A DNA stretch of 20,000 nt from Tricharina praecox (lineage: Eukaryota). Location: positions 59,097 through 79,096 of the forward strand of contig NW_026250457.1 in NCBI RefSeq assembly GCF_024521635.1, read 5' to 3'. How positions within the stretch are numbered: position 1 is the first letter of the stretch; every line of letters starts with the position of its first letter. Of this stretch, positions 1-20,000 are shown piece by piece. The translations under genes were made by a program, and so were the position numbers. The notes beneath the pieces are model-generated. The model was not told where the DNA came from and ran no database searches. It was given only the letters and a program-made list of their open reading frames with translations.

Positions 1-2
1 GG

Positions 3-545
3 CGAGTAGACGACTTCGAAGAATAACTTTCCAAGTCCTGTCGTATCGCCAACCGTCTGGCCACACTAGAAGCCCAACCCCAGGGCCACGCCGAGCGCGT
101 CCCGGAGCCAGCCATGTTCGATGGCACTCGATAGAAGCTCGAAGGGTTCTTTGCCCAGCTTTGACTCAAACTGTACTGCAACCATACCCGTTTCCCGTCC
201 CCAGCACTCAGAATGGCCTACACCTTCAACCGTCTCGAAGGCCGTGCCCAAGCCCAGATACTGCCGTACATCCAGAACAACGTGATCAGCTTGACCGACA
301 CCGATGCCATGGTCACCATCCTCGAAAACGCCTTCAGCGATCCCGACTCAGCGGCCACCGCACGCGCCGAACTCCACCGTCTCAAGCAAGGGAACAAGGA
401 CTTTACATCTTACTTTGCGCAGATTCAAAGGCTCGTGTCCAAGCTGAACTGGGACGAGCATGCCAAACTCGATGCACTACGCAAAGGAGTCTCCATCGAG
501 CTCCACCGACAACTGGTGGGCCGCACTCAGGGACTCACCTACAAT
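3..545 (+). pseudogene. gag: gag fragment of element A (Retrotrans_gag-like capsid region)
   Basis: Frame +3 reads ...PEPAMFDGTR*KLEGFFAQL*LKL...RFPSPALRMAYTFNRLEGRA...LENAFSDPD...ARAELHRLKQGNKDFTSYFAQIQRLVSKLNWDE...LRKGVSIEL, a typical fungal gypsy Gag. Stops at 24-26, 132-134 and 162-164. Ends abruptly near 545. Confidence 0.9.
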
Positions 546-3500
546 AGAAAAGGAGAACCTCACCATCTTTGCCACGACCCTGACGCAGATCAATGAAGTT
601 CTATCTGAAGAATAACACAGCTCAACCGCCCACATTTCCCCCGGATACCACAGATTTCTCCACGTCTTCTCTGAAAGGTTGGCGCAGAACCTACCACCCC
701 ATCGGCAATACGGCCACAAGATCCCACTGAAGAAAGGATTTGTGCCCCCTTACGGGCCCCTCTATTCGCTCTCAAAAACCGAGCTGGTCGCACTCAAGGA
801 ATGGCTTGACGACAATCTGAGTAAGGGATTCATCCTTGCGTCCTCATCACCAGCGGCATCACCGATCCTGTTTGTCAAAAAATCGGACGGCTCCTTGTGA
901 CTGTGTGTGGACTATAGAGACCTAAACGAAGGAACCATCAAGCACCGCTACCCACTTCCCCTGCCCCAGGAAACCTTGATGCGACTGTCCGGTGCAAAGT
1001 ATTTTACAACATTGGATATCCGCGGTGCTTACAACCTGGTACAAATGGCAGAAGGGGAGTAACGGAAAACGGCTTTCCGTACCCGCTACGGACTTTTCGA
1101 ATCATTGGTAAAGGCTTGCGGGCTAACCAACGCGCCAGCCGACTTTCAAGCCCTGATTAACGACGTTTTACGACCGTTTCTGGACGACTTCTGTACCGCC
1201 TTCCTAGATGACATCTTTATCTACAGCGCGTCACTGAAAGAACACTGAAAACAGGTCACCAAGGTGCTACGCGCCCTTTCATCGGCCGGACTGCACTTGA
1301 AACTGGAGAAATGCCACTTCCACCAGACAGAGGTCAAATACCTGGGCCTGATCATAACCACGGAGGGTATTAAGATAGATCCTGCCAAAGTCTCTTGCGT
1401 ACTCGAATGGGAAAAACCGACCACAGTAACGAATGTGCAGTGTTCCCTGGGCTTCGCGAACTTCTACCAGCGCTTTATCCAGGACTACTCCAAGGTGGTA
1501 TCTCCCCTGACGGCAATGACAAAAAAGGAAAATGGGAAGTACGTCCCCTTCAAATGGGGTATTGACCAACAGCAAGCCTTTGACACTCTCAAGACTGGCT
1601 TTACTACCGCCCCGATACTCCGACATTCCGACTACGACCGAGAAATAGTGGTGGAAACTGATGCCTCGGATTACGTACCGGCCGGTATCCTCTCCCAGTA
1701 CGACGCCGACGGAATCTTGCATCTGGTTGCCTTCTATTCAAAGAAACACTTCCCGGCGGAATGCAATTACGAAATCTACAACAAAGAATTGTTGGCAATT
1801 GTTCGAGCCTTTCAAGAATGGAGACCACACCTTGAAGGAGCCGCGCACCCGGCCCCAGTGCTGAGCGACCACAAGAACTTGGAATACTTCATGTCAGCCA
1901 AGTTGCTCAACCGCCGGCAAGCCCGATGGTCGGAATTCCTGTCCCGTTTCGACTTCAAAATCGTCTATAGACCTGGTAAAGCAGGAGGGAAACTGGATGC
2001 ATTGACAAGGAGGTCAGGAGACCTCCCTAAGGAGGGGGATGAAAGACTGCTGGCGAACCAACAAGCAATCCTCAAGCCCCAAAACCTGCTGGAAGAATTG
2101 AGATTGTCAGCGACCAATCCGTTGGAAGTACCCCGTCCCACTCTCTACCCTGATAACCGAAGCATATCAGGCAGATTCAGCGCCGAACAAGATCCTCCAA
2201 CTGCTCAGAAACGGAATACGCCAATCGAAGGACATCTCGCTCGTCGACTGCAGCGAAGTCAACGGACAATTACATTACCGAGATTGCTTCTACGTTCCTG
2301 AACACGACTCACTCAAACTTCGCCTGATCCAGGACCACCACGGCCCACCGGCTATGGGCCATCACGGAAGAGCTAAAACCTTGGGACTCCTGGCCGGGAA
2401 ATACTACTAGCCCCAGATGCGGAAGGACGTTGACCGATTCGTGGAAACTGCCACATTTGCAGACGAACGAAAGCAAGAACACACGCCCCCTACGGTGTGC
2501 TCAGCCCACTCCCAGTACCCGAGAAACCCTGGCAACATATCTCCGTCGAGTTCGTAACCGGACTCCCTCCCTCAAACGGATTCGATGCCATTTGCGTATT
2601 TGTGGACCGCCTCACCAAGCAACGACACCTGCTCCCTTGCAACACGACCATCACCTCTGAAGGATTCGCAGAACTATTCTGCGATCTGATCTTCAGATAC
2701 CACGGACTACCCGACACTATCGTATCGGACCGGGGCCTACAGTTTGCATCACGATTTTGAAAACATCTATGCTCTTGGCTCAAGATCGACGCACGGCTCT
2801 CCACGGCGTTCCACCCGCAGACGGACAGTCAAACAGAGAGAATGAATGCAGTAATGGAAAACACCTCCGAGTATACGTAAGCTACCTGCAGAATGACTGG
2901 GTCGACTGCCTATTCTTGGTAGAGTTTGCTGGCAACAACCAGGCATCTGACACCACCACCCTGTCCCCGTTCTTTGCTAACCTAGGCTACCACCCCCGTT
3001 GCGACTTCGAGCTTGACATCCGAACCGACAAGAAAGAAGAGCGAGAGGCACAGACAGCGGCAGAGCGACTCCAGCAGATCCATGACGTTGCCCGCAGTGA
3101 GATGCGCTACGTCCAAGCACGGCAGCAGGACAACACGGACCAGCACCGAACCCGCGCACCGGCCTTCCAGCCTGGAGATATGGTATGGGTGGACGGCCCA
3201 AACTGGCGAACGGAGCAACCAAGCCGAAAACTGGAAAACAAGCACCTCGGACGCTATCGGATTACCCGAGCCATCGGAAACCACGCATACAAACTGGACA
3301 TTCCGAACACCATCCAGAAGCACCGCACCTTCCCAGTATCCCTCCGCCACGCATCCGCTGACGACACCCTCCCCGGCCAGATCCTGCCGCCACCGTTACC
3401 AATAATTGTGAACGACCAAGAAGAATGGGAGGTGGAGGAAGTGCTCTACAGCAGAACGCTGAGGGGAAGACTCCAGTACCTAGTCAAGTGGAGGGGTTTC

Positions 3501-3551
3501 GCAGCACCGATGTGGGAACCTGAGGACAACCTTGTGGACGTACAGGCAGTG

Positions 3552-4241
3552 TGTGAGACTGGGACGGGTTTGTGTCGTCGGAGTCTATAGTAAAATCGAG
3601 GATAGAATAAAAGTCAGGGATTTCGATAATTCACAACGGAATAATCTTAAGGGTGTTTTGTTCGATGGTTTGTTCGGTGCGGTGATTGTAGTTTGTTCAG
3701 TTGCCAGCTCGGTTCGACTTATAGTCGTCCCGATCCTCAGCACGTGATTCCTCTAGAGTGCGGCCTAACCTAGCTCCGTTGCTTCCTTTGCATCGGAGTT
3801 CCGCGGCCTAGCCTTGAGTCGTCGTCAGCTCTCTTCGGATAGTCTTCTCGACTAGGCAGGTGGTAAACACCACGCGCCCAAGATAGATCGGAGTTTCCGA
3901 GCAATTATCTCCCTCATGCGCCGGCAGAGTTCTTCGCTCGAAGTTGTCTGCCCCCATCGGTCGATGTTCGATTCTCTCGTCATAACAGTTTTTTCCTGGA
4001 TCGGAGTTCCTACTGCGGGGCCCTATGATAGGAGATCTCAAAGTCCTCTGGACTGTTATCCCGATCTCCCGCATCTCCGATCACTGTCTAGACTCTGGAA
4101 TCCGTTTGCTCCCTCCTTCCTATCTTGTCTTTGATCGCTTCTAACTATCCTTTCGGCTCGCAACTCTATTCTAATCACCCGAACTATCTAATCACATCTG
4201 TTGCGACCGTCGTGTCCTCCGATACCTATCGGGGTGTCACA
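3552..4241. mobile_element. Solo LTR (690 bp) related to element B, with 5-bp TSD CAGTG
   Basis: Termini TGTGAGAC...GTGTCACA (7/8 inverted match). Flanked by direct repeat CAGTG (3547-3551 and 4242-4246). Removing it restores the chromodomain frame VDVQAV|EDFHQRYP. Its first ~110 bp align with 6494-6600. Confidence 0.93.
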
Positions 4242-4315
4242 CAGTGGAAGACTTCCACCAACGGTACCCAATGATGCCTGGACCAGTCCCACTTGCTCTC
4301 GGGGGAACTCGAGCC

Positions 4316-4329
4316 TTAGGAGAGGCTAC
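4316..4329 (+). other. Polypurine tract (PPT) of element A
   Basis: TTAGGAGAGGCTAC lies immediately before TGTCACGG, the usual position in fungal chromoviruses. Confidence 0.75.
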
Positions 4330-5145
4330 TGTCACGGCTCGCGACGGAACGATCAAGGAAGAGTCGGAACAGGGGCTGGAAGGCAGCGCGGGGGCAGTGC
4401 AAGGGGCTCCACGGGCGGCAATGCAGTAATGAGCCGGAGGAATTGGGGCTGTGTAGTGGTAGCAGGGGTAGCGCTGCAGCGCAGGCTGTGAGTCACTAGA
4501 GTGGGGTATCGGCCAGGAGGATTTCTCAGGGTCTGGCACATGCCCACGGTCATTGTCAGGTTGCGGGAAGAAGTAGAGGATTTCCTATATAAACGGGCCG
4601 ACGCCGCTCTGTATTTAGTTCTTCACGTAACAACTTGTTAATTTAATCACTGTTACCTCTGTCCTTGCCTCGGCTGCCGTCTGCGCTGTAGTCCTTGTCC
4701 CTGCCTCTGTTCTCAGTTGTCGTCTGCACTGAGCCCTGCCTTACCTTGTCCTCTGAACCCGTGTTGCTTGTGCCATACCCAGAGCCCGGTCCCCCGCCAG
4801 ACTTCGCTACCTGGAGCCTTGCCCGACCGTGCCGTTACAGTTACCTGTGTCCTCGCCTCGCCTGCCGTCTGCGCCCGAGCTCCAGTTTCTGGCCTTCTCT
4901 CTCAGTTGCCGTCTGCACATAGTCCTGTCTTGCCTCGTTTTCCCTCACGCCTTGCCGTTGCCCAGCCTGATTACGTCCATCTGTCCACCTGTCTTCGCTG
5001 CCTGGAGCCCAGCCCGACTGTGCCGTTACACTACCGTCATAAAATACACTGGGAAAGTACTATACCACTCGGCCAAAAAGTATTTTGATGGCTGACGGCC
5101 ATCATCCCAGTCGCTACTTAAGGCAAGGATTTCTGAACTGTGACA
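4330..5145 (+). repeat. 3' LTR of element A (816 bp)
   Basis: Starts TGTCACGG after the PPT and ends CTGTGACA (7/8 inverted match). Purine-rich U3, TATATAAA at 4586-4593, pyrimidine-rich R/U5. An unrelated - strand gag begins right after 5145. Confidence 0.88.
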
Positions 5146-6444
5146 CAGAAGGTAGTGAGATATGACATGATGTCGTTATTATACCTCAAGGCGCACATCT
5201 TGCTGAGAGCATCTGCGCCTTCTCTCGAGTCTAGATACTGCTCTCGGATAGCTTCCTGTTAGGCCTGCCAATTGTCGAGCCCACGTAAGGCTCCTCACCG
5301 TGCTTGATGTCAGACACGTGCTTCGTGTTTCAACAGGGTTCCCGTGCAGGCGGTGCCTTGCACGTCGTCGATGTTGGGGTAGAAGTCGAGGTATTCATTC
5401 ACAGCATCCCACCACAGTCTGCAAGGGGTGGTTAGTTTACTGTGGAAGTTGTTGGGATTGCCCAGACGGAGTATGTGAAACCCTCCGTTCGCCCATGTGA
5501 GGGCCGCAGCCATGATGCGGACAAAGCGTTGTGCGTTGTCCTCGTGGTCGGCATTCCCGTGAAGAGCGACATGGTCTCCACGGCGAACAGACTACGTTCT
5601 TGCAGGAGGGTCTTCATCATCAGAGCATGCATGATCTTGGTGGTCACCTCCGAGGTTACTGGCCGGATTTCTCGGAGGTAAGGGAGGGAGAACTGTTCCT
5701 GAACCACTGAAATTCATCGCTGGGCAAACAGCCAATATGCACAGTCCTGCAGACCGTGATTTTTCTCTTGTGCCTGTGCGGACCCATTCCGGAACCTTCT
5801 CTTTCTGTTTTCCTGCGCGGATTTCCACCTGCTTCAAGGCTTTCGCATTTTCCCTAACAAGCCTCTTCAATTCCTCCTGCTGCTTGTGGAGCTCGTCGCT
5901 CCTTCTCACCTTCTGTTCCGCTCATACGTCGATGCTGCCATTGTAGTCTTCCTGGTTCTTCATCTACTCAGCCTGGACGGTTTAGAGGAAGATAATCGCG
6001 CTTTGGAGCCGGGCGTGGGCTATGCTATTGTTCTGTTGCCTGATCTCGTTATCCTTTCTGCGCTCCGTGAATACTGCCTACACGTCGCTGTTTAAGTCTT
6101 GGATGGCGTCGGCGGCGTTTGCGAGCTCTGTGCGGAGCCCTTTGGTAGCATCTTTGTTTTTCGCTGTTGGTTGTGTGAAGATACTTTATAGCCTCGCAAA
6201 GCTGGTCGTAGTTACGTTCTATTTCTCGCATGCGGCTGGCGTTACGGTTGGAGATTTGGTCGCATGCAGCGTACATCTGGCGGAGGTTTTGCAGCACAAA
6301 GTGGTATTGTTGCAGTATTGTTATGAACCTGTCAAAGGGGTTTACGATTTCAATTCTTGCGCCGGCCGTGTGTGTGGTGGAGAGTGCAGAGTCCAGCGTC
6401 TGTGTGTATCCCAGGCGAAGCATGTCGATGTTGGTGGATGACAT
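5146..6444 (-). pseudogene. gag: gag of a second Ty3/Gypsy element (B), truncated by insertion of element A
   Basis: ATG at 6444 (MSSTNIDMLRL...), a coiled-coil N-terminus (RMREIERNYDQLCEAIKYL; DELHKQQEELKRLVRENAKALKQ), then gag-like PNNFHSKLTTPCRLWWDAVNEYLDFYP...LLKHEARV*HQAR...DNWQA*QEAIREQYLDSREGADALSKMCALRYNNDIMSYLTTF ending exactly at A's LTR. Frameshifted. Confidence 0.75.
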
Positions 6445-6493
6445 AGTCGTTTCTTGTGGTGAAAGCGGTAACTTATAAATCTCAGGATTACAG

Positions 6494-7060
6494 TGTGAGA
6501 CTGGGCAGGTTTGGAACGTCGGAGTCTTGATACATATTGAGTATATCATTAAAGTCAGGGATTTCGATAATTCACAGCGGAATGATCTTGGGGGGTATCA
6601 AGGGTAGTGTTCGGTGTTGTGGTTGAGCTGGTGTTGAGATTTCTGTGACGATAGTTGAGTGACTATACAATCTCCCCATACACCAAGCACGTGATCGGAA
6701 AAACTTTGCCGTGGGGAACTCAGCTGCAAACGCCATTTGAGTCATGCTGTGGCGTAAGCGCTACGAAATGACTTCTCGGTGTTTCCCCAGGCGGAGGGCG
6801 CTGAGGGTGACGTACGAGGCTTAGGTCCACACCGAACCTGTGGCCCGGAATCTGGACTGTGGGCTGTGTACAGCAACTTCGGAGAAGGGTTGTGCACTCC
6901 AACAATAGTGGACAGTCGAAACACACGGTATGTAGAACAAACGCAACCGTTGAACCCTTCGGCGTTGCGAGCGATACAAGTGGTTTGTACCCTCTCTCGA
7001 GACTTGGGTAGCTTCCTATGTGTCTCTCGACGGAATCGAAGACCCGATGTGGGTCTCACT
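6494..7060 (-). repeat. 5' LTR of element B (outer boundary uncertain)
   Basis: Begins TGTGAGACTGGG and shares AAAGTCAGGGATTTCGATAATTCACA.CGGAAT.ATCTT and AGCACGTGAT with the solo LTR at 3552. Lies 50 bp upstream of the gag ATG on the - strand. Best inverted terminus is GTCTCAC at 7053-7059. Confidence 0.7.
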
Positions 7061-7164: not shown

Positions 7165-8081
7165 TAGGGCTGTCAATCGTCAGTCCGGACTGCAGTCCAC
7201 TAGTGGATACATGCTAACATTGATGTTGTGCACTTCGCGGCTTCGCTCACGGGTCACATGCTATCATTCCGGAGAATTCACCGCCCGAGATACGTCCGCA
7301 GGCCAGTAAACACACGTAACCACCCAGCTTTAACAAACCCTCGCCACTTCGCTGGCTGGTACCTACTAGTAGTATGATGATATCCGAGGCTAACGGAACA
7401 CGAGGCGCACTCACTTCCAGCGCATCGACATGCCCAAGTACACACGGTACTTCATGCCCACTCCAGTTCGAATCCGCAACCGAGCAACGTCAAAGCGTCC
7501 GCACTCCGGGTATCCCTCATATATACTCCGTCATAGCTGTTGCACTACGGTCGAAGAGAGCAGGACCGTCAACTGTCCGTCCCGTCCGTCTTTGAGGTTA
7601 CCCGGCCTGGGACAGAATTAGTCGGGCTGAGGAGACCGTGGACTACAGTCTTCCGGGCTGGAGAAATGAGGACGGATACCCCACAGGACCCGGAATTGAC
7701 TGGAAGACTCGGACAATGCAAGCGGCGTGGCGCCACACAGTGGCGCAGGTGTAAGGATGTGTGGCCGTGCGGCTCCATTTCGCAGTTTCTCTCACGGTAT
7801 AGAACTTTCACACCATCCCCGTTCCTACTTCCAGCAGTGTCTATCCCCTGAGGTCGATTGTTTGACGACGTTGAAAATTCTGCTCCAGGCTGAAAATTCT
7901 GTCGGTAGTCACCGCGCTATATACTACTTCGCAAACTAGTAGTCAGCATAGCAAGCTAGTGCTATCAGGTACCTATAGGTACCAGGCGGGTATCCGGGCA
8001 TTTCATCCTCCGGACGGAATGGATCAGTCCTCTGGAAAGCCTGCCCGGGACTGTAGTCCGGACGGACGGTTGACAGCCCTG
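7165..8081. mobile_element. Non-autonomous TIR DNA element (MITE-like, ~917 bp)
   Basis: 34-bp terminal inverted repeats at 7165-7198 (TAGGGCTGTCAATCGTCAGTCCGGACTGCAGTCC) and 8048-8081 match at 30/34. GAAG flanks both sides. Internal TIR-like sub-repeats near 7567 and 7640. No recognisable transposase ORF. Confidence 0.75.
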
Positions 8082-9815: not shown

Positions 9816-9823
9816 TATAAATA
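9816..9823 (+). promoter_or_regulatory. TATA box, copy 1
   Basis: TATAAATA followed by a CT-rich tract typical of fungal transcription-start regions. Conserved in copy 2. Confidence 0.7.
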
Positions 9824-10037: not shown

Positions 10038-10730
10038 TACGACTACGGTCGTATATTTTTCGAAAGGTCGTCTAAGGTACATATCTCACGCTACTTTACT
10101 ACCCCACGGGGTTCTCCCATACCTGCAGAAAACGACTGACGAAACTACTACTAGGACTTCCTAGAGATCCTACGGGACTGTTAGATTACGACTACAGTCG
10201 GAAATCATTGAAGAGGTTGTCTACGGTACATATCTCTCTATACGTCACTACAGCATGGGGTTCTCCCTTGTTTGTGGAAACTGACTGACGAAACCACTAC
10301 TAGGACTTCCTACAGATCCTGCGGGACTGTTAGATTACGATTACGGTGGGTAATCTTTGCAGAGGTTGTCTACGGTACATACCTCCCAACACTTTACAAC
10401 ACCCGGGTGTTCTCTTATATCTACGGAATGTGACTGACTAAATCACAATCAGGACTTCCAGAGACGTACTACGGTAGTGTCCGATTTTACGACTACGGTC
10501 GGTAATTTCTTTTTCGGTCGTCTAAGGTGAATATCCCTAAAGTTATTCCATGGTTGCAAAAACCGACTGACCAAACCACCATCAAGACTTCAAAGTAGAC
10601 TTACTACGGTAGTGTCAGATAAGACTACGGTCGATATCTTTTTCTGAGATAGTTTACGGTACATATCGCCTTATACACTCTTTCCGTAGTGCGTGAAATA
10701 ACTGACTGTGCGCCATCAAGACACCTAGAT
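10038..10730 (+). other. Tandem array of five ~149-bp exon+intron modules with UNCG-type hairpins (putative spliced non-coding leader or ncRNA), copy 1
   Basis: Predicted introns 10077-10154, 10226-10303, 10375-10452, 10527-10586 and 10659-10720 (GTACAT/GTGAAT...ACTGAC...YAG; the last two end in AAG). Internal exons are 71-74 nt, ATG-free, and do not join into an open frame. Confidence 0.75.
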
Positions 10731-10785
10731 TTATTTTTACGGATTACTTCACAAGACCGAGTTTGTGCAAGTAAAGTTGTCAGAT

Positions 10786-11929
10786 ATGAACAACGTTCCA
10801 ATCAAGATTGTGGCGAAGGTGTGCGGCGGTGGTGTCGACGGCGGGTAACGGCCCCAACAGGATAGCCAACAAGTCGGTTTTCGAAGACTTGGACAACTCC
10901 GACTGTGAGATGAGAGACGGCGACGACGATGGCGAAAATTCCGACTCCGGGGATGGAGCTTCTTTCGTTGCTCCTCCTCTTGACTGTGACGATGAAGACA
11001 GTGACTCTGACTTCTACGACGAAGACAAGGACGACGACAAGAAGGCCGATCACAAGAAGGCCGATGACAAGAAAGGAGACGACCCTAAAGGCGGCGACGA
11101 TGGCGGCAAATCCTCCTCCGGCGATGGAGCTCATGCGATTCCTCCTCCTCCTGCGATTCCTCCTCCTAGCTGTGACGACGAAGACAGTGACGCCGAGTTC
11201 TACATGGAAGACGAAGACGTCGACAAGAAGGACGGAGAGGCAGGCGAACCTGCAGCGATTCGTGTTCTGCTGGAATGGCGGGAGGGTGGGAACGATGATG
11301 ACGATGATGACGATGACGACGATGAGAAAGACTCTCATGATGATGACCAGAGTGGGCTAAGTGTGAGTCCACTGGATGACGACGAACTAGAGTCCCTCGT
11401 GGCTTGTTTTGAGAAGCTTTACCTATCTCGCAAGAGAAGTGTGTCGGCTGCGGCTGTCGTTGGTCAACAGAGCAGTGCACTTCTTTGCCCTCGGGCCACC
11501 GGACCTGCCAAAGACACGGACGCAGACGGAATGGAGTCACTTGTGGCTCTCTTTGCGAACCTTTCGGTGTCTGATGAGAGAACCGACAAGGACGGGATGG
11601 AGTCACTTGTGACTCGCTTCAAGAAGCTGTCAGTGTCTGGCAAGAGAGCTCAGGATGCCGTGTTGGCTCCGGCTCCTCCCAAGGACACGGACGGGGTGGA
11701 GTCACTTGTGGGTCTGTTCGCGCACTGGTCGGTGTCTGACGGGACAACCGACAAGGACGGGATGGAGTCACTTGTGGCTCGCTTCAAGAAGCTGTCCGTG
11801 TCTCGCAAGAGACGGCAGGATAGTGTGTCGGCTCCGAGTCGTCGTGACGAAGTGGACTACGTTGGGCAGACGGTGAGGCAAGTGTCTTTGGTACTCACAT
11901 TTGATTGCCAGCGACACCATACATCTTAA
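10786..11929 (+). CDS. Orphan acidic, low-complexity protein with tandem NES-like repeats; frameshifted near 10845 (possible pseudogene, or starts at ATG 10910, 339 aa)
   Basis: Long open frame 10808-11929, D/E-rich, with repeats DGMESLVxxFxxLSVS. The ATG at 10786 matches the paralog's ATG at 15431 but stops at 10846-10848 because of a 1-nt indel. Confidence 0.55.
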
Positions 11930-11967: not shown

Positions 11968-12600
11968 CAGGGCCTCTCTGCCTGACCACTGCGTTCGCTC
12001 CCAGGGCGCTGTACTCGATTCCCTCCCAGGTCTCTCTTCCTCTATACTGCATTCACTCCCAGGCCTCTCTACTGGATTCGCTCCAAGACCTCTCTACCGG
12101 ATTCGCTGCCAGGGACCTCTACTCGATTCGCTCCCAGGGCTCTCTTCCTCTATACTGCATTTACTCCTAGACCTCTCTACTGGATTCGCTCCAAGGCCTA
12201 TCTAATGGATTCGCTCCAAGGCCTCTCTGCAGGATTCCCTCCGAGGCCTCTCAACTGGATTCACTCCCATGCCTCTCTACTGGATTCCCTCCCAAAGGCC
12301 ACTCTATCTCCCCACTGGATTCGCTCCAACGCCTCTTTACTGGATTCGCTGCAAGGCCTCTGTTTGATTCGCTGCCATCAACTCTCTACTGGATTCGTTC
12401 CCATTCCTCTCTACTGGATTCACTCTCATGCCTCTCTACCGGATTCGCTCCCAATGCCTCTCTACTGCATTTGCTCCCAGGGCCTCTACTGCATTCGCTC
12501 CAAGGGCCGCTACTGCATTCGCTACCATGGCCTCTCTGTTGGACTGGCTGCCATGGCTCTGTACGGGATTCGCGGCCATTCCCTCTCTACTGGACTCACG
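11968..12600. repeat. Degenerate 25-bp minisatellite (~AGGCCTCTCTACTGGATTCGCTCCC), roughly 25 units
   Basis: Recurrent CTCTCTACTGGATTCGCT at a ~25-bp period. Confidence 0.9.
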
Positions 12601-13714
12601 ACGATTTTCCCACGCAAAATGGCAACCACTTTCGCGGCGAGAGAGAGACAAGGCGGCATAGCAATTCTCGTCAACAACACAGACATCAGACCAACAACAG
12701 CCTACAACACGCCCGCTAAATTCATGTCCGCCGCGGATGTCGCAGCTCCACGTTTTCAGCAGCAACATTTCAGCAGTTTGAAGGATCCGTGACGCACGAC
12801 AACAGTAAAGTCAGTTCTAAACAAAAGTAGGTTGGACACAAATTACTACCACCAACGGCGACGCAGTCACGGTTCACAGAGGAGAAGCGAGTGGACTACC
12901 GCGACTGGATTCATTCGGTATCCTCACATGAAAACACCACCGGGGACCCAATTAAAACCGCCTTTGGAACCATCAGTACGATGCCGAAACGAGATTCGGA
13001 GCCGGACTCCGACGCACCCCGCCCCTCCTACTGACTGAGTGACCAGTCGTACCACTGCGCCGCAGGAAGTGACCACGGCAGACAACGATTCCACCGACTG
13101 TACTGGATGGTGCTGTAGTAGAAGGATGGGTTCTGAGAAAGAGGAGGGTTGGCATGCAAGTGGAAAAGATTGTACAGTAACATCCGAGATCAATGCAGTG
13201 TTTGTTGTGTTAGTGAGAATTCAATTCAATTGATGTTTGACGAGGATTGGTACTGCAGAATGTAGTCGCCAAAGCAGTACCGTAACCGTACAGCCAGCAG
13301 TGGTGGTGGTGGTGGTGATGGTGATCTCGAGCCCGTAATACTACTTGCCGGTTTCGGGTTCAGCATGCCATTCTATCCTTGGGCCAGCCGACGTCGGCAA
13401 ACTTCTATGGCTGGGGAGTCTGGCCCAGGATGAGATATGCCGGAAAAATCGATCCATGGTCCGGCCAGTTGTGACATTCGACCCACCTATACAGGGGCCG
13501 GTCCATGTATACACGGGCCGGTCCATCTATTGATGCGCGGGCCCATCTGAAGAACAATATATCTGCCCAATGGCATAGAACATATATAGTACCCAGCCTG
13601 CTGGTGATCAGGAATTTCCCACACCAAATGAAAAACACAATCGTGGCAAGAGAGAGAGAAGAAGGTACGGTTCTTTGGTTACTTAATGCCATTTTCAGCG
13701 AGTCTGTACATGTC

Positions 13715-14105
13715 AATTTATCATGGTTAGCGAACGGCGAGGGTTCTTTGTTGCCAGGTCCTCATGACTGGTGGTATTCGCTGCCATGGCATCTCTGCCT
13801 CTCTACGGCATTCGCTCTCAGTGCTTTATCACTGCATTCGCTCCCAGAGCTCACCACTGCATTTACTCCCAGAGATGCATCACTAGTTCGCTCTCAGGGC
13901 TCTATACTAGACTTGCTACCAGGGCTCTATACTGGAATCGCTGTTAGGGCTTCATCACTGCATTTTCTCCCTGAACTCAGCCCTGCATTCGCTCCCAGGG
14001 CTCTGTACTGGAGTCGCTGCCATGACTGTGTACTAGATTCGCTGTCTGCCAGAGAGACTGTGCTGCATTTGCTATCGTGGCCTCAGTACGGGATTCGCTG
14101 TTGTG
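13715..14105. repeat. Second, more degenerate block of the 25-bp minisatellite with the same 5' flank
   Basis: ATCATGGTTAGCGAACGGCGAGG matches ATCATGATTGGCGAACGGCGAGG at ~11932. Followed by repeated CTGCATTCGCTCCCAGGGCTCT-like units. Confidence 0.8.
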
Positions 14106-14524
14106 GGTTCGATGATGGTGGTTACTTGACGGATGTCATTTGTGTTTTTAGTTGCCACGAAAAAAAAACTGATGTGTCGCGAAAAAAAACGTTTTTTTGG
14201 ACAAGGACTTAATCCAGACTTTTCTGTCGCCGCGACGAGATGCTAGTGATTTACGACAGGAACAAGCCTGGTGCGAGACTATTTTCATCTATCTAGAGGA
14301 ATATATCTTTCCGTGTGGGCAAATATCTGGAAGTACATCATGTAGCATACCCTCTCCCGTAAACGTACGTGATGTTGCGGAGCCGCCAAAAGCGCCTGTA
14401 GTTACGTCATTTCTTTGCAACCCTAACTCCTCAGCGGGATACTGCCACCGAGTGATGGTGGCGGCCGAAAGTTCGCCGACGGTTTTTGGCTAGTTTGTTT
14501 GGATATTCCAAACCTACCAAACAG

Positions 14525-14532
14525 TATAAATA
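14525..14532 (+). promoter_or_regulatory. TATA box, copy 2
   Basis: TATAAATA at the position homologous to 9816, followed by a CT-rich tract. Confidence 0.7.
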
Positions 14533-14802
14533 GCTCCGTCTTCCTCCACCCCTCTTCCCTTTCTTCCTTCGTGAATTCTCAAGACCTCCTGATCTCAACG
14601 TTTACGTTCTGCTCAACCCTCTCTTGCACTTCACACCTTTGTTGCATCGCAACCCCCCTTTCTGCTCTTGCTCTTACTCTACTCTTGCTCCCTTTTCTTC
14701 CTCCTGCTCCCTCTTCCTCTTCCCTTTTCCTCCTGCCTTCAAGTTTTCTTGTGCACAGCACAAGTCACGAAGAGCTTGCGACAGCAAGTCTCATTTCGAC
14801 TT

Positions 14803-15375
14803 CGGACTACGGTCCGTTGCGCTTTCTGACCACGGTTAGTTTTTTTTCTCGAAAGGTCGTCTAAGGTACATGTCTCCCTCCCCCATGCTTGCGGAAAACG
14901 ACTGACGAAACACTACTAGGACTTCCTATACAGATCCTACGGGACTGAGATTACGACTACGGTCGAGAATCTTTGAAAAGGTTGTCTACGGTACATATCT
15001 ACCTCGATTCTACTACACCCGGTGGGTCTCCCATATTTGCGGAACGTGACTGACCAAGCCAATCAGGACTTCCCGGAGACGTACTACGGTAGTGTCCGAT
15101 TTTACGACTACGGTCGGTAATTTCTTTTACGGTCGTCTAAGGTGAATATCTATATAGACTCTGCTACAACTGGGAGTTCTTCCATGATTGCCAAAGCGTA
15201 TTTACCAAACCACCATCAGGACTTCCTAGTAGACCTACTACGGTAGTGTCAGATAAGACTACGGTCGATATCTTTTTCTGAGGTAGTTTACGGTACATAT
15301 CCCCACATACACTCTACCACGCCTGGAGGTTCTTCCACAGTGCGGTACTGACCGTACCACCATCAGAACACCTAG
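14803..15375 (+). other. Tandem array of four exon+intron modules with UNCG-type hairpins, copy 2
   Basis: Predicted introns 14866-14919, 14991-15066, 15142-15219 (weak branch site) and 15293-15366, all GT...YAG. Internal exons are 71, 75 and 73 nt. Confidence 0.75.
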
Positions 15376-15430
15376 ATGTTTTTACGGATTACTTCACAAG
15401 ACCGAGTTTGTGATTGTAAAGTTTTCAGAG

Positions 15431-15940
15431 ATGGACAACGTTTCCAGAAAGATTTTGGGGAAGGTGCGCAGCGGCGGTGGCGGCGGTGGCAATGGCTCCG
15501 ACAAGATGGCCTACAAGTCGAAGATCGAAGACTTCGACAGCGAGATGGAAGACGGCGGTGACGGCGATAACGACAACTCCGACTCCGGGAATGGAGCTCC
15601 TTTTGTTGCTCCAGGTGAACGTGCAGCGCTTTGCGCTCTGCGGGACTGGCGGGAGGGCGGGGAGGGGGGGGGGGGTGGTGACGACTCCGACGACTCCGAC
15701 GACGCCGACGATGAGGACGGCTCTGACGATGAGGACGACGCCAACGATGAGGACGGCTCCGACGATGATGATGACCAAGGTGGAGTATGTGAGAGTCCAC
15801 CTGACGCGGACGAACTAGACTCCCTCGTGGCTCTTTTTGAGACGCTTTACGTGTCTCGCAAGACGACTCAGAGAATTGTGTCCGCTGCGGCTGTGGTCGA
15901 CCAGCAGAGCAGTGGACCTGCCAAAGAGGCCAGGATGTAA
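15431..15940 (+). CDS. Orphan acidic protein (169 aa), shorter paralog of the 10786-11929 ORF, with one NES-like motif
   Basis: MDNVSRKILGKVRSGGGG...DSDDADDEDGSDD...DELDSLVALFETLYVSRK...AAAVVDQQSSGPAKEARM*. Colinear with the copy 1 protein. Confidence 0.55.
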   Translation: MDNVSRKILGKVRSGGGGGGNGSDKMAYKSKIEDFDSEMEDGGDGDNDNSDSGNGAPFVAPGERAALCALRDWREGGEGGGGGDDSDDSDDADDEDGSDDEDDANDEDGSDDDDDQGGVCESPPDADELDSLVALFETLYVSRKTTQRIVSAAAVVDQQSSGPAKEARM

Positions 15941-16158
15941 TGTTGGTCCTGGGTCTCAGGGGCGAAGTGGATTATGAGGAGCTGGGCTAGGGCCCACCCC
16001 GGCCCAGAGGCCGGGAGTGGTGCTGGTAGCGGCGGACGAAGAGGATGGTTATACAACCTCCTCAGGTCGCCCGACAGCAGTCCGGTTCTGGCGAACTTCG
16101 TCCGGTGGTGGTCGCCACCGGCGACCGGGTGATGTCACGCCGTACAGCTTAGACGAAG

Positions 16159-18300: not shown

Positions 18301-19572
18301 TGAGGGTAACGAGATCATGATCACGGCTCCCGACAAACCATATGCCACCGACAACGGGATTGCTTTACGCCTGGGATAGTGTTGTCTGCTGTTACGAGAT
18401 GTGGTATGATAAGATCAGATGGGATAAGATATCAGAATAGGAGCAGGCGCAGATGACTTCTGGAGACGCACAACGCTAGCGGCATTCGGGTTAGGCTTGG
18501 TGGAGCAGAGGAGTGCGGGGCGCGGAGGCAGAGGCGGCTTGGCGTCATCGGTGATCGCCCAAGAGGAGACCTGATTGAAACCTGGTGGGACCTGATGCAG
18601 TCGCTCAACGTTGAATTTTTTCTACTTTTCTACATTCTCTCGTCCTGTCGCCGGTCGGTCCTCATCCTCATCTTCTTCTTTATCTTCATTATCACCATCA
18701 TCATCGACCGAAAGCTTTAGTCTAATTGATCACGTTTTTGTTCCTCACCCGTTTCTGGGTCCCTCAGCAGCCCACGAGGTGGCGCTCTGAGCGGTAGTCA
18801 GAATAGCAACCTTCTCATCGTACTCCTCACATTTACTGCTTGCCCGGCTACGAGATACGACAAACGCCTCCTTCCAGGCGGTTCTCCGTGCCAGCTTCTT
18901 CGATTTGTCAGCCGTACAATCTTCCGCGCCGGACCCGGCCGGGGTTGCAGAATTGCCGCTACCCACGTAATCCCCCCACATGGCCCGTAGCGGCACCACC
19001 ACACGGCGCGCTGCAATTGAGATACACGATAGGGCTAGTGCGAGATGGCTTCATTCGCTATTAACGCGGCCGAATTCAATTCTAGCCACGATTTCGCGAG
19101 GGATCATTCGTCAATGCCTCTCCAGGAAGACACGCGTGAGGAGAAATGGCGAAGACACAGAAAATAGCGAAGGCGGAGTGTCACCGTCGACTGGATATAT
19201 GCTGATCAAGAAAGAAGAAGAGAGCCTGCGGGTCCTAGTTTAACTTCACCTGCCTCCCAACTTGGCCGACCCCACCATCTTGCAGACTACAGTAACCACA
19301 TTCGTTCCCTCTCGCTGACAGCTCCTCCATCCCGCCGGCACAACGGAAATAGAGGTCAACTATCCATGTAGCAAATTTCGCAATGCGGGAAACTTTTACT
19401 TACGGCCGGTAGCTGAGGGTGATGAGGTGGGGGAGTCTGGGTTGCAAAGAAGTTACCGATCGTTCCGTCTGCATATTTATACCGTCTCTTCTCCACAGTA
19501 GATATCGACACTAAATAATCCTTTCAGCACATCACAGCACCGTTCGTCGCGATCTAAAATCCCACCAGCTCG

Positions 19573-19580
19573 TATAATAA
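19573..19580 (+). promoter_or_regulatory. TATA-like element of the hydrolase gene
   Basis: TATAATAA lies 45 bp upstream of an ATG in AAACAATG context. Confidence 0.4.
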
Positions 19581-19617
19581 TACCTTTCACCGCAATCCAA
19601 CTTCCGCATCTAAAACA

Positions 19618-20000
19618 ATGTCGATTCTCAGCAGCACCTTCGCTTGCCAGACCCATACCTACCAAAGCGCGCCCACAACGGCCCTCGACGTTTACAAACC
19701 TGCCAACCACTGTCCTGCCTCGCGCCACAAGACTCTCATCCTATTCCACGGTGGCGGGCTCACCACCGGGAGTCGCGACGTGTTCATCCCCGTCGGTATC
19801 GCCACCCAGCTGCTGAACCGGGGCTGGATTGTCATCTCAGCGGACTATTCGCTTCTCCCGCAGGCGAGCGGACTATCGTTGCTCCGCAACCTCGCCAACA
19901 TCGAGACGTGGATCACCGAGAACGCGGCGAAGGAGGGAATCGACACGACCAACGTTGCCGTCGGCGGCGAGAGCGCGGGAGGGTACATGAGTATCCTTGC
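19618..20000 (+). CDS. Alpha/beta hydrolase, HSL/Abhydrolase_3 esterase family (5' part; runs off the window)
   Basis: Open frame MSILSSTF...LDVYKP...LILFHGGGLTTGSR...RGWIVISADYSLLPQ...IDTTNVAVGGESAGGYMSIL contains the HGGG oxyanion motif and the GxSAGG nucleophile elbow. Missing from the ORF track because no stop falls in the window. Confidence 0.93.
   Translation, partial: MSILSSTFACQTHTYQSAPTTALDVYKPANHCPASRHKTLILFHGGGLTTGSRDVFIPVGIATQLLNRGWIVISADYSLLPQASGLSLLRNLANIETWITENAAKEGIDTTNVAVGGESAGGYMSIL

Follow-up and report, generated by a model that had tools for sequence, protein, structure and literature searches.

A small gene family in Tricharina praecox appears to encode disordered acidic proteins that carry one, four or five tandem copies of a unit resembling a PKI-class nuclear export signal (NES), each gene lying behind a leader of repeated non-coding exons. 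Its focal member, gene 1, lies in the window, by which we mean the whole 20,000-nucleotide stretch that was analysed (contig C56, positions 59097-79096, of a 38-Mb genome in 104 contigs). The reading we prefer, at a probability a little short of even, is that gene 1 encodes a disordered, acidic, lineage-specific cargo of Crm1 whose NES was amplified, and that its leader is selected post-transcriptionally. The motif itself is of a known kind; what would be new is its tandem amplification in a featureless orphan behind an amplified, conserved leader. The case rests on one genome and two damaged copies.

Protein and DNA searches of the genome show three paralogs: gene 1 and gene 2 in the window, with five units and one unit, and a third copy (gene 3) on contig C38, with four. 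DNA searches gave these three loci and no more. Each of the three has a TATA box and a CT-rich first exon, followed by a leader of repeats and a shared start ATG (Table 1). Outside the T. praecox genome, no homolog was found among 6,435 and 8,000 scored protein candidates, which returned only the public models P0002 and P0003, both annotated at source as hypothetical proteins of T. praecox. P0002 is identical to the focal frame over 186 and 146 residues and is thus an alternative gene model of the gene 1 locus. A profile search of 1.84 billion proteins gave four matches, these two together with P0004 and P0005; the latter were dropped as homologs, being repeat proteins of 4,000-5,000 aa without the motif and artefacts of summed repeats.

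Metagenome scans gave no match to the leader pattern and 144 candidates, none of which was confirmed, and a scan of viral contigs gave 64 candidates, again with none confirmed. The gene 1 protein has no feature match in the Atlas and no Pfam family above the cut-off; DUF2719 (E 0.094) fell below it and was rejected. A literature search at the level of record listings found no description of this family or architecture. The original prediction had called the protein an orphan, and the homolog and copy-number searches bear this out, with three paralogs of one, four and five units and no homolog found beyond this genome. The best reading of these sequence searches is a young, three-copy, lineage-specific gene family known from one genome.

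Table 1. Features of gene 1 and gene 2, in window coordinates
Feature	Position	Strand	Remark
TATA box of gene 1	9816..9823	+	identical 8-mer at the corresponding site of each paralog
CT-rich first exon of gene 1	after TATA box, ends at 10076	+	
Five predicted leader introns	10077-10154, 10226-10303, 10375-10452, 10527-10586, 10659-10720	+	repeat family D3/D8
Four non-coding repeat exons, 71-74 nt	10155-10225, 10304-10374, 10453-10526, 10587-10658	+	short UACG-type tetraloop hairpins (predicted)
Last leader exon	10721..10785	+	in each paralog, a predicted hairpin just ahead of the start codon
Ancestral start ATG and 20-codon frame	10786..10848	+	interrupted by one inserted base near 10843-10846, as seen in nucleotide alignment with the two paralogs
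339-aa frame from ATG 10910	10910..11929	+	predicted disordered acidic protein
Candidate in-frame intron, 147 nt	11244..11390	+	pattern search; putative
Unit 1	11387..11425	+	five-Phi fit; basic patch after
Unit 2	11531..11569	+	five-Phi fit
Unit 3	11597..11635	+	five-Phi fit; basic patch after; sole unit modelled with Crm1
Unit 4	11696..11734	+	degenerate: Trp at Phi3, Gly in Phi1-Phi2 spacer
Unit 5	11762..11800	+	five-Phi fit; basic patch after
"Sixth motif"	11852..11890	+	valine-rich regular-expression match; not conserved as a motif
Gene 2, tandem paralog	14525..15940	+	TATA 14525, ATG 15431, open 169-aa frame, stop 15938-15940
Gene 2 leader introns (n=4)	14866-14919, 14991-15066, 15142-15219, 15293-15366	+	predicted
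Gene 2 single NES-like unit	15815-15853	+	

All five units of gene 1 lie in one frame, open from 10790 to 11929 on the plus strand, and four of them fit the strict five-Phi PKI-class pattern with L, I, V, M or F at each Phi position, as do nine of the ten units across the family. The original prediction had counted five to six tandem motifs; the five (11387-11800) stand, whereas the sixth is not a conserved unit. It has Val at four of its five Phi positions and is identical to the units at 14-20 of 39 nt, against 20-37 of 39 nt among the units themselves. In both paralogs the stretch matching its first half ends in a stop codon, and its second half comes after a 17-nt deletion unique to gene 1; it may derive from a degenerate unit. 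The predicted 66/99/66-bp spacing is right for units 2-5 but incomplete, the full series of Phi0 codons, at 11387, 11531, 11597, 11696 and 11762, being spaced by 144, 66, 99 and 66 nt. The single unit expected in the window paralog is present, at 15815.

Across the ten units, the Phi slots hold L, I, V, M or F in 49 of 50 cases, and Phi2 is Phe throughout (10/10, with both codons in use). Acidic residues had been predicted ahead of the motifs, and Asp stands two residues before Phi0 in all ten units of the three paralogs. The three predicted basic patches are likewise present, each formed by two to four basic residues directly after Phi4, and the 25 residues that follow four of the five gene 1 units are net basic. 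The units arose by tandem DNA duplication of a single ancestral unit, as their identity at 20-37 of 39 nt indicates. At least one five-Phi match arose in 6.6% of 20,000 residue shuffles of the 339-aa product and four or more in none, and shuffles of the one-unit paralog gave a match in about 1%. Since the units are tandem DNA duplicates rather than independent matches, the fair chance figure is 1-7%. Codon position 2 varies in one of five Phi columns against seven of 11 spacer columns, so that the Phi columns are not significantly the more conserved (p=0.28), and some non-Phi residues (Asp at -2, Ser at 4 and at 15) vary no more than the Phi residues do.

The product is acidic, as had been claimed, with 87 D/E against 41 K/R among its 339 residues and 63 of the D/E within the first 159. 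Models of the protein are of low confidence, a weak sign of disorder given the three-sequence alignment: the Atlas model has a pLDDT of 0.35, and a separate model at pLDDT 40 consists of isolated helices without a folded domain.

NES consensus patterns are reported to have a precision of 12% and 4%, and true NESs tend to sit in disordered regions (PMC3442415). NES predictors flag 70-98% of random yeast proteins, and the C-terminal flanks of true NESs tend to be acidic (PMC4168985). According to a preference map from 2026, acids are favourable at positions 1-4, as are Phe or Met at Phi2, Leu or Met at 8 and Lys or Arg at 11; Pro is unfavourable, as are Gly within the Phi1-Phi2 spacer and Thr at 10 (bioRxiv 10.64898/2026.07.31.742000). 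The same preprint reports that five-Phi peptides with poor spacers fail to export, that single NESs have an affinity ceiling and that export can be blocked in trans where a NES is very strong. The units were compared with the rules stated in the preprint text. Counted by eye over the ten units, an acid occupies position 3 in ten, Leu position 8 in six, Lys position 11 in five and Ser position 15 in ten, while Pro is absent from all ten, Thr occurs at 10 in none and Gly in the Phi1-Phi2 spacer in one (unit 4); as the ten units have one ancestor, these counts are not independent. Most of the stated spacer rules are followed across the units, but the C-flanks are basic. Phi4 is suboptimal in nine of ten units (Val in eight) and the optimal Leu in one, which points to a moderate rather than a jamming affinity.

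Structural modelling places a unit in the site where a NES would be expected. The genome's Crm1 is 95-97% identical to Pezizomycetes Crm1, and a 33-aa peptide holding unit 3 was modelled with a 239-aa exon of this protein (L029). The complex scored 0.89 against 0.00 for the best of three controls, with at least 72% of contacts shared between runs and a partner pLDDT of at least 61. In a calibration that contains no peptides, the score threshold was passed by 51 of 78 solved complexes in microbes, against 2 of 108 mismatched pairs, and by 39 of 65 against 2 of 126 in eukaryotes. The modelled contacts correspond to human Crm1 514-577, the NES groove of HEAT 11/12, in the expected register, and the Leu at Phi3 is in contact with the counterpart of Cys528, a residue next to the Phi3 pocket (PMC4588050). 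Because many Crm1-NES structures have been solved (PMC4596688; 35 Crm1 sequences have solved structures), the pass of unit 3 shows likeness rather than binding and is possibly memory of solved complexes. Thr replaces human Cys528, the leptomycin B target, in the genome's Crm1, so a leptomycin B test in the native host would probably be blind and a heterologous host would be needed; Aspergillus work uses a special leptomycin-sensitive allele (PMC4488483). That the units are PKI-class NESs able to bind Crm1, as originally predicted, is supported by computation through their spacing, spacer residues, disordered context and the unit 3 model; the degenerate unit 4 and the basic C-flanks depart from this picture.

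Amphipathic helices made for a partner other than Crm1, similar to LD motifs or acidic activation domains, could carry an incidental NES fit, a reading we consider improbable. LD-motif and NES patterns overlap, and LD motifs occur in four or five copies in disordered regions (PMC7703752); the invariance of Asp -2, Ser 4 and Ser 15 and the low precision of NES consensus patterns would also suit such helices. The terminal Phi-x-Phi and the spacers are nevertheless those that Crm1 prefers, strict LDxLLxxL matches at no place, and the modelled peptide enters the NES groove in the register expected of a NES.

Substitution patterns point to selection on the protein. Between gene 1 and the C38 paralog, pN/pS is 0.51 over 324 codon pairs, against means of 0.84, 0.80 and 0.71 in neutral simulations at three transition rates (P = 0/1000, 0.002 and 0.017). 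Gaps are multiples of three in 12 of 15 cases in the coding region against one of nine upstream, a difference to be read with the fact that triplet-repeat slippage also gives 3n indels. Judged from this comparison, the data show that the frame evolved as protein-coding, which speaks of past selection and not of present expression. A C-terminal extension past the ancestral stop, as in P0003, was rejected as coding, codon-position bias being absent in every frame over 195 nt. The post-stop sequence of gene 2 and the C38 copy (window 15952-16146 and C38 12882-12688) is 84% identical with no codon bias, and on C38 a 350-codon acidic frame without a Pfam match follows it.

The frame of gene 1 is interrupted near its beginning. 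ATG 10786 is common to all three paralogs, and in gene 1 an additional base shifts the frame by +1 after codon 20, so that it stops at TAA 10846-10848. The next ATG is at 10910, and the long frame is thus without a homologous start. This one-base insertion is either a real lesion or an assembly error; in the latter case gene 1 would be intact, with about 380 codons. Seven single-base indels separate the low-depth X1/X2 contigs from the assembly at window positions 12400-15664; either side may err, and these indels bear on trust in one-base frameshifts here. Lesions affect the frame in two of three paralogs, gene 1 and the C38 copy, the latter with a 2-nt deletion and two in-frame stops; the open paralog, gene 2, has one unit.

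Within the long frame of gene 1, the candidate intron has a GC donor and a decayed branch, and its counterparts in the paralogs measure 204 and 168 nt. Its removal would delete the acidic run and Phi0 of unit 1. Public model P0003 uses the counterpart intron in the C38 paralog, and P0002 omits unit 1. X1 and X2 gave 12 and 9 contigs, which span introns and spacers as DNA would; none of them skips an intron, and 10720-11451 is left uncovered. X3 yielded no contig. These data speak neither for nor against expression.

Such lesions would also fit a decaying family, in which a single ancestral NES was multiplied by neutral slippage and gene 1 no longer makes protein; we regard this as unlikely, although it keeps an appreciable share of the probability. 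Besides the insertion after codon 20 and the deletion and stops of the C38 copy, it would account for the degenerate unit 4, three shifted AAG acceptors in the leaders and the retrotransposon-rich setting, 8-13 kb from contig ends. Gene 1 nonetheless keeps 339 codons open past the lesion, and its leader exons are 94% identical to those of gene 2 while the introns drift, losing blocks but not splice signals. The purifying selection on the frame argues in the same direction, though it is possibly older than the decay.

In the wider surroundings of gene 1, at window positions 1-3590 and about 4236-5146 and in L034 and L031, there are a broken Ty3/chromovirus-type retrotransposon with gag, RT/RNase H, SH3 and chromodomain, a probable solo LTR (by eye) and further copies, upstream and on C8, at 90-98% identity. 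Coiled-coil-like frames at 5592-6597 (minus strand) and L034 2085-2879 sit beside an LTR-like stretch, in which 6493-6589 resembles 3551-3648, and have no Pfam match. A 33-nt inverted repeat (7166-7198 / 8048-8080) is 91% complementary, its arms 849 nt apart. The start of an alpha/beta-hydrolase gene (BD-FAE / Abhydrolase_3) at 19558-20000 is cut by the contig end. On the C38 side, a Tc5/pogo-type transposase DNA-binding remnant below the Pfam cut-off (L026 1405-2034) lies about 4 kb from the paralog. No neighbour gene common to the C56 and C38 loci was found, nor a partner gene at the paralogs.

A 25-bp minisatellite follows gene 1 (11981-12600 and 13800-14100) and, with a conserved flank of about 200 bp, occurs at 16 places on 8 contigs; one site adjoins a STAG/Scc3-type cohesin gene on C44. 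Its units could each form a small bulged hairpin (by eye), and it holds six CNYTCNYT words in 620 nt against 0.87 expected, a word that is presumably the Ssd1-binding motif. The array was rejected as part of the family, being dispersed elsewhere and absent at the C38 paralog.

The leader of gene 1 repeats an exon-plus-intron unit of 149-152 nt. Five leader introns are predicted in gene 1 and four in each paralog (n=13), and the repeat exons measure 71-75 nt across the family. A GT donor is present in all 13 introns and a CTRAC branch in 12, and in every case an AG is available 12-15 nt past the branch; the acceptors, predicted from sequence, were picked by rule, and three of them are AAG. After in-silico splicing, all three frames close in all paralogs, and the leader was rejected as coding sequence because every frame is closed. 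Genes 1 and 3 are without an upstream ATG, and gene 2 has an extra out-of-frame ATG at 15376 in its last leader exon, 55 nt upstream of the main start.

Comparison of the leaders separates exons sharply from introns. Between genes 1 and 2, substitutions affect 13 of 215 exon positions (6%) against 40 of 142 in intron bodies (28%; Fisher p=1.4e-8). Relative to the C38 copy, the counts are 30/217 in exons vs 41/173 in intron bodies for gene 1 (p=0.017) and 27/219 vs 36/178 for gene 2 (p=0.038). Conservation changes at each exon border, and intron deletions leave the splice signals intact. On these predicted boundaries, exon-over-intron conservation is the strongest signal in the locus. Since identity switches at every exon border, a single gene-conversion tract is an unlikely cause of the exon identity; RNA-templated conversion may have acted.

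Each repeat exon can form two small hairpins with a UACG loop, which with a C-G closing pair we take to be a UNCG tetraloop, and the end of one exon and the start of the next can give a third across the junction. Hairpin counts are 11, 10 and 4 against shuffle means of 0.61, 0.52 and 0.44, for a pattern chosen post hoc in copies that are non-independent. In the consensus fold, 92.8% of cells pair against 86.7% in shuffles, but double-sided changes affect only two of the 14 pairs, and both of these follow a single division between exon types. Folding z values of the whole spliced leaders (-0.71, -0.57 and -1.02 in the three paralogs) correspond to ordinary stability, and the hairpin before the start codon gives local folds with raw energies of -9.7 to -12.3 kcal/mol. 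By these measures, the UACG hairpins of the repeat exons are weakly supported. Junction hairpins were rejected as a strong signal, with none of 13 at p<0.05 against random 7-mers (0.06-1.0).

At the last junction (15363-15372 in gene 2, 10717-10726 in gene 1, about 13940-13930 on C38), the closing pair of the possible hairpin is U-A in gene 2 and C-G at other junctions; in genes 1 and 3, the acceptor has moved one base, to AAG. The pair change is suggestive of pairing across the splice junction, and it concerns one pair only. Rfam holds no family for the leader (one chance match, E 4.7), and a covariance model run on 100 kb of DNA to find more leader modules gave only the 10 training exons and three exon-1 ends. 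Where the original prediction spoke of a splicing-dependent structured leader, the predicted introns and the exon conservation agree with it; folding z of -0.6 to -1.0 and the absence of any junction hairpin at p<0.05 do not.

In raw percentages, repeat exons diverge by 13.8% against 17.6% for coding sequence (gene 1-C38) and by 12.3% against 16.9% (gene 2-C38). A CTACGG word recurs about every 24 nt in the leader, in unspliced DNA too. With repeat exons at least as conserved as the coding region, this regular word and frames broken in two of three paralogs, the leader repeats could themselves be the selected product, whether as a non-coding RNA that acts as scaffold or decoy or as an array of DNA sites for transcription factors, and the frame would be dispensable. 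We judge this quite improbable: the frame bears purifying selection, conservation that switches at exon borders suits RNA better than DNA sites, and an Rfam family match is absent. The leader is a separate puzzle, and non-coding exons that were amplified with their introns and are conserved at least as well as coding sequence point to an undescribed RNA element.

Under the preferred reading of a Crm1 cargo, one ancestral PKI-class NES would have been amplified by tandem DNA duplication to one, four or five units. Each intact unit would form a short helix that enters the NES groove of Crm1 with RanGTP, as the modelling suggests. The protein would then be a moderate-affinity cargo held out of the nucleus, with extra units adding avidity or redundancy, and the basic patches after three units might allow weak import and so produce a shuttling protein. 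The leader of 71-75-nt repeat exons, conserved as described and spliced by prediction, would be under purifying selection and would most likely serve as a protein-binding platform limiting when the gene is translated. In gene 1, the insertion would leave codons 1-20 as a short frame upstream, and any protein would start at ATG 10910, unless the extra base is an assembly error. An acidic tail with a tandem PKI-class NES array would allow a direct test of the effect of valency on Crm1 export, and, as a natural protein, it would also show whether Crm1 can be titrated by a product of the cell itself.

The original prediction had gone further, speculatively, to a multivalent Crm1 binder that acts as an export adaptor or competitor and loosely recalls Rev/RRE logic or a selfish toxin-type gene. 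In its strong form, such a protein would either carry its own structured RNA out of the nucleus as a multivalent adaptor, in the manner of Rev and the RRE, or sequester Crm1 as a selfish toxin. Both the NES units and the RNA modules are indeed repeated within this one gene, Rev is reported to use several NESs for avidity (PMC4360530), and the blocking of export in trans by very strong NESs (bioRxiv 10.64898/2026.07.31.742000) offers a route for a sink. Against this, the strongly acidic protein lacks an arginine-rich motif or a folded RNA-binding domain, and the RRE is intronic (PMC4360530) where the conserved parts here are exonic, so the Rev/RRE analogy finds no footing. The number of units does not track that of modules (five units with four exons, one with three, four with three), and Phi4 is suboptimal in 9/10 units. 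The paralogs share no flanking partner gene, and with neither a catalytic domain nor a family match found, the toxin-type suggestion finds no support here. We hold both forms of this reading to be very improbable. A single-gene driver of the spore-killer type would still be compatible with the sequence. The boldest version, to which we give very little weight, is a cellular Rev/RRE counterpart assembled from tandem duplications: the spliced leader, an array of small UACG hairpins, would recruit a dedicated factor or else the basic patches of the protein. The protein itself, a Crm1 sink or adaptor with many NESs that is turned on at a single life stage, would re-route nuclear export with a strength tuned by unit number.

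Comparison with known systems sets the preferred Crm1-cargo reading in context. In the related fungus Pyronema confluens, more than 20% of orphans rise in sexual development (PMC3778014); the likeness lies in lineage-restricted genes and is a lead only. No homolog was found there, and the material drawn from that report describes no repeated spliced leader. HIV Rev/RRE also combines several displayed NESs with structured RNA in the same transcription unit. Rev forms oligomers and, with its arginine-rich RNA-binding motif, recognises an element inside an intron (PMC4360530), whereas the gene 1 protein is acidic, its units are covalently linked and the conserved RNA is exonic. A search of the gene 1 product for an arginine-rich RNA-binding motif found only basic patches of two to four residues, and the spliced leaders, with z of -0.57 to -1.02 and no Rfam match, gave no large stable structure of the RRE type; gene 1 is not a member of this class.

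The paxillin family resembles the gene 1 protein in its four or five short amphipathic helices within a disordered region and in a pattern that overlaps with that of NESs (PMC7703752); it differs in its LD motifs, of which the 339-aa product has no strict match, and in its LIM domains, which are absent here. Juxtaposed NES-NLS modules share the basic patch immediately after the NES, and an NLS lies within 50 residues in 529 of 2,778 predicted human cargos (PMC13041915), which makes the pairing of an NES with a basic patch common. Here the patches are two to four basic residues after Phi4, three times, and their import role is putative.

With the PKI-type (class 1a, five-Phi) NES, the gene 1 units share the Phi0-x2-Phi1-x3-Phi2-x2-Phi3-x-Phi4 spacing (in four of five), the N-terminal acids, Phe at Phi2 and Leu at Phi1, a predicted helix in a disordered chain and, in the model, the same groove. 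They differ in a Phi4 that is mostly Val and in basic C-flanks. PKI carries one NES, whereas in this family up to five copies of a single DNA unit make up an orphan that has no other domain.
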